From: Schmidtea nova
Lineage: Eukaryota
NCBI GenBank assembly: GCA_044892505.1
Contig: CM097883.1
Location: 170,252,001-170,316,000, forward strand
Direction of reading: 5' to 3'
DNA: 64,000 bases
The position numbers and the translations under genes are program-made. The notes beneath the pieces were generated by a model that searched no databases, was not told the origin of the DNA, and saw only the letters and a list, made by a program, of their open reading frames with translations. Positions 31,233 to 36,515 of the stretch are shown piece after piece. Position 1 is the first letter of the stretch; every line of letters starts with the position of its first letter.

Positions 31233-32052
31233 GATAAAACGTAACGCCCTTTCAATGATTTTATTATCTAGCATAGCCTTTTCATTGGCCAATGTTTTGA
31301 ACATTACAATGGTAGATTGAGGATCAATCATAAAGTTATTGTAAATTGCCAGACCAAACAATCTACCGATCACAGTAAACTGGGTTAAATCGTCATCAAA
31401 TATCATTTTGTTAAACCAGCAGAGTCTTGATTCAGGATACATTTCAAAGAGACCATAATCAAAGAGACCATAACGCTGCGACTGGCTAATGGTATCATCT
31501 AGCAAATTATCTCTTCGTACAGTAGTATGAGAACTGCTTTGTGCTACGAAGCATGGTAAATCTTCTGACATTAAGCATTGAGCATCAATTTTGAACATTA
31601 CAAGAGGAGAATTCCATTTTTCGAAACCATAATTACAAAAATTCCAAATTGATTCCAACATAATCGAAACTCCACATTAATCAAAATTCTAAATAGCCAA
31701 CTTCCTAAATCCAAACCGAAACTAAAATTTCACTAATTCCACATCAAAAATCCAAAACTGAATTGATTGGTTTAAACAAATCTAAAATTCAACAATTACT
31801 CCAAATTCACTATTCTAAAAAATCAATTAAATCAAATTAACAAATTATTCTACATAAATCCAAAATTACCAATTAAACCTCATGCGCACACAGACGCTGT
31901 CAGAAAAATACAAATGATCTAAACTAAGCGCACACAGACGCGAATAAGGAAAAGCACAGCTCTGCGCACACAGACGCGAGCAGGAAATAAAAAGCCGACA
32001 CACGCAGCAACCAAACAGCCAAAGTTTGTTCAGGCAAACTTTGGCTGAAACA
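31233..32052 (-). repeat. 3' LTR (end hidden in the N gap)
   Basis: Copy of 35696-36515 with two visible substitutions; preceded by the PPT. Confidence 0.9.
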
Positions 32053-32064
32053 TTTCCCCCCACC
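32053..32064 (-). other. Polypurine tract GGTGGGGGGAAA
   Basis: Immediately precedes the TG start of the 3' LTR. Confidence 0.8.
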
Positions 32065-32095
32065 TTGATCCCTTCTAGCGGATCAACCGACCTGT

Positions 32096-33241: not shown

Positions 33242-34285
33242 TCATTCTCCACCCTTACTTGCGTTTCGTTTTACATCATTGCAAGCGGTTGTAAAGTGTG
33301 AGTACCTCTTCCTGTCAACCTTTTCAGACGCCTTGAAGTTTCTCTGCCCGTCTTGCCAATTGAAATCCTTTTCCTGACCAAATCCATATAATATTTCATT
33401 TGTCGCTCGTATTAGTTCGGCTTCCCTTTGCACCCACTCCTTCAACCGTTTTACTGACTCCTCACTTTCATCTGTTGCTTGCTCTCTTTTCCATTGCATA
33501 AGTAGAGAAGCTGGCAATTTCTTTAACAATTGGTGCAATAGACAGCCTCTCTGAAGGTCCTCTTCTCTTCCAATTTCCTTAAACCGTACCTCCATGGATT
33601 CCAACAATCCAACGAAACTATCCAAGTCTTTTATTTCTCCTTCGCGAACCGGCCGAAACTTGTCTACAGCTTCTAACATAATCAGGTAGCTACGTTCTTC
33701 ACCTCCGTAACGCCTTTCCAATTTCTCTTTCGCCATCTTGTAGCCTTCGGCGGTATAACCCAGTGGCTCTATCATTCTCAGAGGCTCACCTAACAAGTAC
33801 TGCCTAAGATGCAGCATTTTATCTTCGGCCGTTCCATCTGCCGTATCTATTACCGTATTGAAGGCCGCTTTCCACGTCTCAAACTCGACAACTTTCCCAT
33901 CGAAAATCGGAATCTTTATTTTCTGCAACCGATTTAAACTCTTCTTTTCTCTTGGCGCCTCATATTCCGATGTCTTTGACCCCTCGCTCACAACACTTTG
34001 TTCTGTTCTTTTTTGCATTATCTTATCTATCTCTTCTTTTTTTGTTTCCAGCTCACAGATATCTTTTTCCACTAATTCTAACTCCTCCTTCTTGTTTAAT
34101 TTGTCACACAACTCGACAAGTCTTAGCCACTCGTCCAATGTATCCTCAAACTCTTTTTCATATAATACAAGTGAGTCCTTTATTTCCCCGACCATTTCTG
34201 CCAACAATAAGTTACGCGCTCGAGTTACTTTCCATTTTTTAGATCGCCGACGGGTCCATAAACTTTTGAACTCTTCCTCATCATT
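33242..34285 (-). CDS. BEL/Pao Gag portion (coiled coil plus DUF1759-like domain), zinc knuckles absent
   Basis: [23 protein letters not shown]...[14 protein letters not shown]...[13 protein letters not shown]. Confidence 0.85.
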
Positions 34286-36124
34286 ACCGCCTCTTAAACG
34301 AAGAACAAGATGAAGAGTAGATTCCTTTTGTATGTTGTAATCTGCCAAGATTCTTCCGCCTTCCAATTGTTTACCCGCAAATATCAATCTCTGCTGATCA
34401 GGTGGGATTCCCTCTTTGTCTTGAATTTTCGTTTTTACCTTTTCTATTGTGTCACTTGATTCAACTTCCAGGGTAATGGTTTGCCCTGTTAACGTTTTTA
34501 CAAATATTTGCATTCCCCCTTCCAATCTCAAAACTAGACCGCGAGTTGATTCCTTGGTGGGAATAGTCGTATTTCGATTAATTAACTTACTGAAAACGCC
34601 GCCCCGAGTTTCAATACCCAACGAAAGCGGTGTAACATCTAGCAATAATACCTCATTCACATACTCAGCAAGAACTCCTCCCTCTATTGCTGCACCCATT
34701 GCAACAGCTTCATCTGGATTCACACTCTTACTAAGAACTCTACCGAAAGGTTTCTGTACAGTTTCTTGAACTTTAGGCATTCTTGTCATCCCACCAACTA
34801 ACAACACTTCTTTAATGTCCGATGTCTTTACCTCTGCATCTTTAATACCTTTTTCACAAGGTTCAATTGTTCTCTTAATTAGGTGCTCCACCAATTGCTC
34901 TAACTTTGACCGTGTGAACCTTAAACCCAAATGTTTAAGTCCTGTATTATCCATCGTCAAATATGGAAGATTAATGTCCGTTTGAACAGCTGATGACAAT
35001 TCAATTGTAGCATTTTCAGCTGCTTCTCTAACTCTCTGTAAAGCCAGAGGGTCTTTATTAACATCAACGCCTTGATCACGTTTAAATTCATTACCGATAC
35101 ATTGTAAAAGCACATTAACAAAATCTTCCCCACCCAAAAACGTATCCCCACTTGTAGATTTTACTTCAAAACTATTATTCAGATTTTTTATATAACTATC
35201 TCGCTTTAGCTTAATGATTTCCCAGTTGAAACACCCATAATTGACTTTAAATCCATAGTTTTTAACCTCTCGCCCTATCTGTCTAATCATCGCTGTACTA
35301 TACATTATTTCTTTTGGAACACACCCCTTATTCACACAAGCCCCACCCGTTTTATTTTTTCCAATTAAAGGAACAGATCTCCTAAATCCATCTGTTCTCC
35401 TGGCTATTTCGTCCCCCAATTGAAAAGAATGCTGGGGCCCATAGCAGCATCTCTTCTGGTCCCCTAATGGACCCAACCCACCGCAAAACATGGTAAAGGG
35501 CAGAGGGGGAAATGTTTTACCACAAGATAAAAATTTACAATAATAAAGTTCAAAATAATGTACAAAGATATTACAAAAACATAGATTAAAAAAAGGTACC
35601 TTGTCCTGGCTGGATAGCCAGAACAGTATTGTCCATTTTCCGAGAAGTACGTGGTCCCCCGATGGGAACCACGCTCTGCTACCAGAAATGTTTGTGATAA
35701 AACGTAACGCCCTTTCAATGATTTTATTATCTAGCATAGCCTTTTCATTGGCCAATGTTTTGAACATTACAATGGTAGATTGAGGATCAATCATAAAGTT
35801 ATTGTAAATTGCCAGACCAAACAATCTACCGATCACAGTAAACTGGGTTAAATCGTCATCAAATATCATTTTGTTAAACCAGCAGAGTCTTGATTCAGGA
35901 TACATTTCAAAGAGACCATAATCAAAGAGACCATAACGCTGCGACTGGCTAATGGTATCATCTAGCAAATTATCTCTTCGTACAGTAGTATGAGAACTGC
36001 TTTGTGCTACGAAGCATGGTAAATCTTCTGACATTAAGCATTGAGCATCAATTTTGAACATTACAAGAGGAGAATTCCATTTTTCGAAACCATAATTACA
36101 AAAATTCCAAATTGATTCCAACAT
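33242..36124 (-). CDS. Chimeric 960-aa polyprotein: HECT fragment, PBS/leader, glutathione reductase-like fragment, mitochondrial HSP70 fragment, ubiquitin, BEL Gag
   Basis: One uninterrupted ORF; motifs are listed in the sub-features. Confidence 0.85.
34286..34513 (-). CDS. Complete ubiquitin moiety (76 aa), preceded by a mutated tail of a previous ubiquitin repeat
   Basis: [10 protein letters not shown]...[10 protein letters not shown] with 7 changes from canonical ubiquitin (K11Q, P19S, N25K, A28T, D52G, T55I, S57A). Preceded by [14 protein letters not shown]. Confidence 0.97.
34556..35170 (-). CDS. HSPA9: Captured mitochondrial HSP70 (mortalin) internal fragment, ~205 aa, intronless
   Basis: [66 protein letters not shown]. 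Confidence 0.9.
35174..35371 (-). CDS. Captured glutathione reductase-like fragment including the redox-active disulphide motif
   Basis: [12 protein letters not shown], matching the GGTCVNVGCVPK family motif, followed by [18 protein letters not shown]. Confidence 0.8.
35667..35684 (-). other. Primer-binding site complementary to initiator tRNA-Met
   Basis: TGGTAGCAGAGCGTGGTT, 4 nt after the LTR-terminal CA; matches the 3' end of eukaryotic tRNA-iMet (...CTCTGCTACCA). Confidence 0.85.
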
Positions 36125-36515
36125 AATCGAAACTACACATTAATCAAAATTCTAAATAGCCAACTTCCTAAATCCAAACCGAAACTAAAATTTCACTAAT
36201 TCCACATCAAAAATCCAAAACTGAATTGATTGGTCTAAACAAATCTAAAATTCAACAATTACTCCAAATTCACTATTCTAAAAAATCAATTAAATCAAAT
36301 TAACAAATTATTCTACATAAATCCAAAATTACCAATTAAACCTCATGCGCACACAGACGCTGTCAGAAAAATACAAATGATCTAAACTAAGCGCACACAG
36401 ACGCGAATAAGGAAAAGCACAGCTCTGCGCACACAGACGCGAGCAGGAAATAAAAAGCCGACACACGCAGCAACCAAACAGCCAAAGTTTGTTCAGGCAA
36501 ACTTTGGCTGAAACA
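35689..36515 (-). repeat. 5' LTR (827 bp, TG...CA) containing a HECT E3 ligase coding fragment
   Basis: TGTTTCAGCC start and CA end before the PBS. aa ~19-126 (35747-36070) read VRRDNLLDD...YGLF...WFN...[12 protein letters not shown], a HERC/UBE3A-like N-lobe. Confidence 0.88.

Follow-up and report, generated by a model that had tools for sequence, protein, structure and literature searches.

Host mRNA pieces read in frame into a ubiquitin–Gag junction in BEL/Pao retrotransposons of Schmidtea nova: a probable route to Gag release by host deubiquitinases

Partial host mRNAs enclosed between long terminal repeats (LTRs) were described by Tan et al. in 2016 (PMC5131818), with microsimilarity at the switch points and several parent genes per element; a Pao case (BATUMI), a mouse case involving four genes, and further rounds as non-autonomous elements are on record in the same paper. 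A plant case of an LTR element with host gene pieces is maize Bs1 (PMC7264820, PMC5131818). In cytopathic pestiviruses, ubiquitin is inserted before a viral protein within the polyprotein (PMC2850149), and the planarian giant Gypsy elements Burro/GYPSM1 combine many host-like domains in one polyprotein, including a Ubi2/SUMO-like domain (PMC6431247). The element described in the following lies on the minus strand of a 64,000-nt stretch of the Schmidtea nova genome (assembly GCA_044892505.1, contig CM097883.1, positions 170,252,001 to 170,316,000; the whole stretch is called the window). It is a recently inserted, pol-less copy and a non-autonomous BEL/Pao derivative, not an autonomous member of the group.

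The central feature of this element is a single long frame leading from the LTR through pieces of host mRNAs, the cargo, into a complete ubiquitin and from its terminal Gly-Gly directly into Gag. We regard it as probable, with good though not full confidence, that this is a polyprotein arrangement in which host deubiquitinases would cut behind the LxGG motif and free Gag. The cleavage after Gly-Gly is likely in view of the constraint on ubiquitin and the invariant LxGG, and a Gag released in this manner likely explains how the elements carry in-frame patchworks of host mRNA pieces.

Read stop to stop on the minus strand (window 36139→33242), the frame comprises 965 codons, in which Pfam recognizes HECT (residues 73–136, E 1.2e-6), HSP70 (323–533), ubiquitin (545–616) and DUF1759, the BEL Gag domain (746–887, E 9.9e-11). 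The order is HECT piece, primer-binding site (PBS), glutathione reductase, mortalin, decayed ubiquitin tail, ubiquitin and Gag; the 79-residue piece ahead of HSP70 has glutathione reductases as its best match (E 3.5e-15), and by identity the HSP70 piece is best matched by planarian mortalin (85%). A first-pass annotation, made from the letters of the window, had proposed one 960-codon frame of HECT, reductase, HSP70, ubiquitin and Gag; this order stands, the length does not, and the HECT part turned out to be LTR sequence. Lying within the LTR, the HECT piece is present twice per element, the second time in the 3' LTR frame (31676→N), and the long frame therefore opens inside the LTR and reads across the PBS, which we take to be of the initiator tRNA-Met type. 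Both LTRs show TG…CA ends, PBS and polypurine tract are present in the window copy, and the LTR pair (offset 4463) differs at 2 of 820 visible sites. The earlier statement that the element moved recently and without its own pol is supported by a real mobile family; no match to pol was found in the window copy or its 19 sisters. Zinc knuckles are absent from Gag of the window family and present in the relative L083 and in pol-bearing relatives. In their place follows an acidic tail of ~380 codons, which, common to non-autonomous relatives with three Gag types and absent from pol-bearing relatives, gave no Pfam match above cut-off. Just past the private stop at the Gag/tail joint a second LRGG motif occurs (window 33218–33229, minus strand), either by chance or as the remnant of another ubiquitin tail.

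A DNA search with the window element gave 3,699 candidates, 24 of which were scored, and all 24, the window included, proved to be near-full-length places. The exact 24-nt ubiquitin–Gag junction has 153 matches in the genome (reversed control, 0). Sister copies hold their own LTR pairs, mostly more than 99% alike; under a strict test, 5-bp target duplications were recognized in 9 of 19 sister copies, one more shows a mismatch, and for nine the ends were not found by the strict pattern, one flank of the window copy itself lying in N. Past codon 965 the frame continues in 19/19 sisters, reaching 1,321–1,508 codons in 13 of them (the family frame has ~1,340 codons), so that the 965 codons of the window represent a private truncation. 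Most insertions of the clade lie within (ATT)n microsatellites (flanks of L003–L020, L046–L051 and L065–L071), which suggests a target preference, and tandem arrays of clade elements with 4.1–4.7 kb spacing are found at G000:C3:86.546-86.560 Mb, C2:10.83-10.86 Mb and C1:323.39-323.40 Mb. Three runs of unknown kind provided short contigs over all 30 bins and are uninformative on expression.

Nearly all sampled BEL/Pao elements of the genome carry ubiquitin ending in Gly-Gly directly before Gag. Of the 675 candidates on the Pao-peptidase list, 150 were scored; 16 loci were taken from this list, and Pfam was run on 10 of them. A pol, consisting of protease, reverse transcriptase (RT), RNase H/Pao peptidase (PF05380) and integrase, is present in L039–L054 and L065. 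Ubiquitin stands ahead of Gag in 16/16 pol-bearing loci, one of them frameshifted, the PBS is identical in all 16, and in 13 the PBS motif lies within the long frame. An independent Gag-domain sample from this genome with its ~1,500 Gag loci, made up of the 30 top DUF1759 matches (mostly one family) and 20 spread down the list of 150, showed ubiquitin before Gag in 48/50 loci, with LxGG at the boundary in 48/48. In a quick tree the Gags fall into six lineages, with tails LRLRGG, LRLKGG, MGLKGG, LRLCGG, LRLNGG and LGLRGG, and across them the ubiquitin retains 34 to 70 of the 76 host residues. Leu73, Gly75 and Gly76 are fixed in the 12 rows aligned; Met1, Arg42, Ile44, Lys48, Lys63, Val70, Arg72 and Arg74 vary. 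The residue following Gly-Gly is N, S, G, C or M depending on the lineage, never Pro, so that the "defined N-terminus" once foreseen for Gag holds loosely. Five of the six Gags start without Met, and the L045 type keeps a Met directly after Gly-Gly, marking the old Gag start.

The cargo of the 16 pol-bearing loci varies (prenyltransferase, VPS35, HSP90, CCT, HECT), and ABCD-transporter, CCT and CDC14-like pieces occur in additional relatives that contain mortalin. The suggested origin from stress and proteostasis mRNAs therefore appears right only in part, the VPS35, prenyltransferase, ABCD-transporter and CDC14-like pieces not fitting it. The loci L046–L054 have their Gag in common and differ in LTR cargo, and the reductase–mortalin–ubiquitin cassette recurs in L065, L066, L070 and L071 on a different Gag with pol. 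Since it also resides on autonomous elements, this cassette was not assembled in the window's non-autonomous element, as the serial stringing proposed at first would require; the search for other copies and autonomous relatives, which had been recommended as a check, thus yielded both. In L065/L070-type elements the LTR start and the last 65 internal bases are common with the window family. Being clade-wide and found in pol-bearing elements too, ubiquitin preceded the other captures, the cargo being exchangeable, and it is an old module rather than a fragment captured by this element. In L074 and L214, a window-lineage Gag is joined to a pol 83–94% like that of L065, and L079, L080 and L083 keep a ~45% protease remnant, pointing to recombination between lineages.

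In the quick Gag tree, which has long branches and a midpoint root, seven ubiquitin-less rows group together with support 100; a single origin is not established by this tree. Outside the S. nova genome, ubiquitin or a ubiquitin tail ending Gly-Gly precedes Gag in 5 of 151 Gag relatives (metagenome proteins), many others being too short to tell; an HSP90 piece and a motif resembling a PBS are seen in one of these five. Mollusc Gag relatives showed no ubiquitin. A protein search with ubiquitin plus Gag and a metagenome scan with P0245 were swamped by polyubiquitin (0/80 loci with a Gag part), a Gag-region search of long proteins gave one match, lacking ubiquitin, and a protein-atlas look-up returned DUF1759 clusters only, under 0.8.

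Selection was estimated from counts of distinct codon changes in 20 copies that had been picked for their similarity to the window; neither tree nor recombination enters these counts. On this basis, with which the pairwise values agree, ubiquitin has 13 synonymous and 5 non-synonymous changes (omega 0.15, p 1.2e-4) and Gag 58 and 54 (omega 0.35); the corresponding figures are 26/89 for mortalin, 6/26 for reductase, 10/22 for HECT and 43/137 for the tail. An intact ubiquitin ending LRLRGG is found in 20/20 copies, as the cleavage idea of the first-pass annotation predicts, and a stretch of 11 residues (letters not shown) is invariant throughout, the upstream ubiquitin tail being devoid of Arg74 in all. 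The cargo drifts as protein while its frame stays open: codons 27–536 contain a single stop, the expectation being 11.6 (P 1.1e-4), the distance from the HECT anchor to the PBS changes by −21 and +120, both multiples of 3, the leader indels for the most part add up to multiples of three, and PBS and LRLRGG share one frame in 18/20 copies. Stop deficit and in-frame PBS agree with the early suggestion that selection has kept the frame.

The origin of several captured pieces could be traced. The host mortalin gene (G000:C3:30.87 Mb) is intron-free over 605 codons, and the element piece is 93.4% identical to it over 624 nt. With respect to the host glutathione reductase gene (G000:C1:422.908 Mb, L221), the element piece has three exons fused and two introns of about 54 nt removed, and the 370-codon VPS35 piece of L042 joins host exons spread over about 29 kb at 94–100% identity, with the exception of one 89% match spanning a 51-nt gap. 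The intron loss in the reductase and VPS35 pieces indicates capture from spliced mRNA. That all captured parts are intronless, as had been stated, is informative for reductase; for mortalin and ubiquitin the absence of introns is uninformative, given the intron-free mortalin gene and contiguous host polyubiquitin units. As to HECT, the best PDB match of the L102 version is UBE3A (E 1e-33), and about 40 codons present in relatives such as L102 are missing from the window HECT; its parent gene was not located, since 11 candidate host loci matched at only 27–33% and element copies crowded the DNA search. The two matches at the reductase/mortalin joint share 12 nt of near-identical sequence, those at the mortalin/ubiquitin-tail joint a shorter near-match, and microhomology is seen at 2/2 joints with known parents. 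Such overlaps agree with the template-switch model of PMC5131818, and together with the spliced-mRNA origin they favour the capture by RT template switching that had been assumed. In comparison with each of ten host polyubiquitin units, the ubiquitin is at or close to saturation at synonymous sites, the mortalin dS being 0.13, and ubiquitin is thus a much older acquisition. Among older relatives, L107, L108, L113, L114, L077 and L080 have another whole or partial ubiquitin directly ahead of the reductase piece, and L107/L108 contain a longer reductase piece without mortalin, from which a capture order of reductase before mortalin can be read.

Linear ubiquitin fusions are cleaved by deubiquitinases behind Gly76, provided that the next residue is not Pro, and the ubiquitin insert of pestiviruses works as a host-cleaved processing site. 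On this background, a BEL/Pao ancestor may have gained ubiquitin at its Gag start, whereupon cleavage would have made Gag's own Met and all upstream sequence dispensable. In 18/20 copies the long frame starts within the LTR and reads on across the PBS. During reverse transcription, template switching at microhomologies brought in pieces of spliced host mRNA, as can be seen for reductase and VPS35 and may be supposed for the others. The deficit of stops suggests that only ribosomes that have translated the cargo arrive at Gag; with translation presumably starting in the LTR, those captured pieces that keep the frame would survive. The constraint on ubiquitin and the invariant LxGG suggest that a cut after Gly76 then sheds the upstream part and leaves the capsid unburdened. 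LTR and leader would serve as a cargo bay that tolerates every in-frame piece and leaves it to drift or decay, and the near-identical ubiquitin modules would probably act as switch points through which cassettes pass from one Gag lineage to another. The window family would make its own Gag in cis and borrow protease, RT and integrase from L065/L070-type helpers. A wider reading, which we offer tentatively and would rather not expect to hold in full, is that the clade has given over the making of the Gag N-terminus to host deubiquitinases and turned LTR and leader into an exon-shuffling device sampling spliced mRNAs; the products would be chimeric proteins with a free Gly-Gly (conjugatable where Arg72 is kept), cassettes would be swapped via ubiquitin, and the cargo might bring a gain, as a shield against small-RNA silencing or by disturbing host quality control.

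Other explanations have to be weighed against release by cleavage. An assembly chimera could be suspected from other perfect repeats in the window, and no single contig piece among those listed spans the whole stretch; the many dispersed copies with their own LTR pairs, target duplications and private changes refute it for the architecture, and its probability is practically nil. Fused ubiquitin can act as a sorting or turnover signal on retroviral Gag, and it might accordingly stay attached here, addressing Gag to ESCRT, p97 or the proteasome. This would suit the constraint on the whole 76-residue domain, beyond the tail alone, and the largely conserved Leu8, Lys27 and Ile44 position. A lasting signal should, however, lose its Gly-Gly, whereas LxGG alone is invariant among the six lineages; variation is seen in the Ile44 patch and at Lys48/Lys63, and 500 residues of drifting cargo would remain on the capsid. 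As deubiquitinases require a folded ubiquitin domain, cleavage accounts for the whole-domain constraint as well, and we consider a permanent signal improbable. Still less probable is a start at the ubiquitin Met, or a spliced-in start, with ubiquitin as an expression leader, as in ubiquitin–ribosomal protein fusions, and the cargo as untranslated passenger RNA. Met1 is kept in the window lineage and two others, and within the window family the cargo is without protein-level constraint; Met1 is replaced by Ile in three lineages, however, and neither the near-absence of stops in the cargo, nor the compensated leader indels, nor a PBS kept in frame, also in pol-bearing lineages, would be expected of a passenger RNA. 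Finally, cleavage may proceed as proposed with the cargo itself under selection, either because host-like LTR RNA makes small-RNA silencing costly or because released cargo–ubiquitin disturbs host quality control. Cargo is everywhere and derives from housekeeping genes, with about 1,000 first-look candidates each for mortalin and HECT pieces, omega is 0.59 over the wider mortalin pieces, and both redox Cys of the reductase piece are kept in 20/20 copies. On the other hand, the sister elements L046–L054 share Gag and not LTR cargo, the pieces are partial domains without catalytic parts, constraint is missing within the window family, and abundant mRNAs would be captured most often anyway; selected cargo is therefore judged unlikely.

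Several observations count against release by cleavage as set out here. The sampled loci were the best-scoring matches, with no random draw; two of the 50 Gag loci (L243, L256) show no ubiquitin, and one relative, L069, ends in LRSG. Arg72 or Arg74 is lost in some lineages, which may slow deubiquitinases, and the Met1 still present in the window lineage is a possible start. Two of the 20 copies are frameshifted in the cargo, two have a stop in Gag, and two are broken in the tail; the architecture, for which a chimeric assembly had been named as a danger, is borne out by the dispersed copies. The omega of 0.59, which speaks against a strictly neutral cargo, comes from 32 mortalin pieces of the wider family, most of them picked by likeness to mortalin protein, which biases the value low. 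Between window and host mortalin omega is 0.39, with 6 synonymous differences common to all elements; this comparison was rejected as a test of selection, as host-branch changes enter it. The event counts disregard tree and recombination, and the cargo omega >1 is inflated by compensated leader indels and multi-hit codons; positive selection on the cargo was rejected, the excess being an alignment and mutation-bias effect.

The features of the element are compiled in Table 1.

Table 1. Features of the BEL/Pao-derived element in window coordinates.
Feature	Position	Strand	Basis
5' LTR, 827 nt, TG…CA; start of long frame in 3' half	35689..36515	-	
Captured HECT N-lobe piece, UBE3A-like, inside LTR; without catalytic C-lobe	35720..36055	-	Pfam, blastn to L102, PDB search
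Primer-binding site, 4 nt past LTR, in-frame reading GSRAW	35667..35684	-	
Captured glutathione reductase piece including redox Cys pair; three host exons joined	35160..35404	-	
Captured mortalin (mitochondrial HSP70) piece, 624 nt	34548..35171	-	
Decayed tail of preceding ubiquitin unit; Arg74 lost in 20/20 copies	34514..34555	-	
Ubiquitin, ends LRLRGG, 70/76 residues as in host ubiquitin	34286..34513	-	
BEL/Pao Gag; DUF1759 at 33479–33904; without own start Met, without zinc knuckles	33245..34285	-	
Stop codon private to window copy among 20 compared	33242..33244	-	
In-frame acidic tail, predicted coiled-coil, in place of pol	32096..33241	-	
Polypurine tract	32053..32064	-	
3' LTR, visible part (last bases in N); holds second HECT copy	31233..32052	-	

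Elsewhere in the window, a near-perfect palindrome extends over 7175–17718, with arms at 7622–12391 and 12501–17270 that are 100% complementary, either a fold-back assembly artefact or a real inverted duplication; each arm has a 1,155–1,254-codon frame with, by eye, the look of a Polinton-type protein-primed DNA polymerase B, for which Pfam gave only a weak endonuclease VII match. At 17714–22437 a 963-bp unit occurs three times and then twice inverted, each with a ~280-codon frame without Pfam match, and a related stretch is found at 62205. Penelope-like RT frames are located at 3936–5666 (RVT_1) and 61262–62515, and repeats at 5548–5811 return at 59968–60754 as a small palindrome. An exon of a host BIG2-like gene (Pfam BIG2_C) is seen at 53175–53672, together with hAT and Tc5 transposase remnants at 47115–47717 and 45378–45755, respectively.

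A Gag expression strategy of this kind, with a capsid protein that lacks its own start and is freed from a disposable leader by a host protease, was not found in the literature searched. No BEL/Pao ubiquitin–Gag was described there, the search not extending to Repbase reports, subscription journals and planarian genome supplements, which could mention such elements; the main text of PMC11410931 does not contain "ubiquitin", "BEL" or "Pao", and the accessible part of PMC9289625 has nothing on ubiquitin–Gag in BEL/Pao. Ubiquitin release would be a simple reason why one clade piles up in-frame host pieces, where capture normally cripples an LTR element. Template switching and exon shuffling could be studied in the clade through hundreds of dated natural experiments, and the animal group is tractable. 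In practical terms, annotation and RNAi design can be misled in such genomes, where roughly a thousand fragments of mortalin, UBE3A-like ligase, HSP90 and ubiquitin look as if they were expressed.

Compared with ordinary BEL/Pao elements (Mya arenaria P0243, P0260), the DUF1759 Gag is 33–40% identical, and the pol-bearing relatives have the same order of Pao peptidase, RT and integrase; the Mya Gag, however, starts at its own Met, without ubiquitin. Maize Bs1 resembles the window element as a non-autonomous LTR element in which several host gene pieces form a chimeric protein; it is reportedly of the Copia type, with the cargo after Gag and no ubiquitin, and it is one family, whereas the plan of the window element is clade-wide. 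The window clade has the features expected of a host-cleaved ubiquitin fusion, a whole domain ending LxGG with a next residue other than Pro. In the pestiviruses, ubiquitin belongs to sporadic dead-end recombinants of an RNA virus, whereas here it appears as a fixed, diverged retrotransposon module at the Gag start. With the LTR retrocopies (PMC5131818) the clade has in common intronless partial host mRNA and switch-point microsimilarity. In those retrocopies some of the internal open reading frame sequence gives way to the host piece, and "in frame" does not occur in the accessible text; in the window clade, autonomous elements included, the pieces sit in LTR and leader and lead in frame into a working Gag or Gag-Pol downstream, and behind them stands a conserved ubiquitin. 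Burro/GYPSM1 has an N-terminal Gypsy Gag in a ~4,900-residue polyprotein of whole, stable domains with an internal ubiquitin-like domain, for which the accessible text proposes no cleavage role (PMC6431247). The window clade, in contrast, places a BEL Gag behind its cargo, in elements of 5–9 kb that carry exchangeable mRNA scraps.

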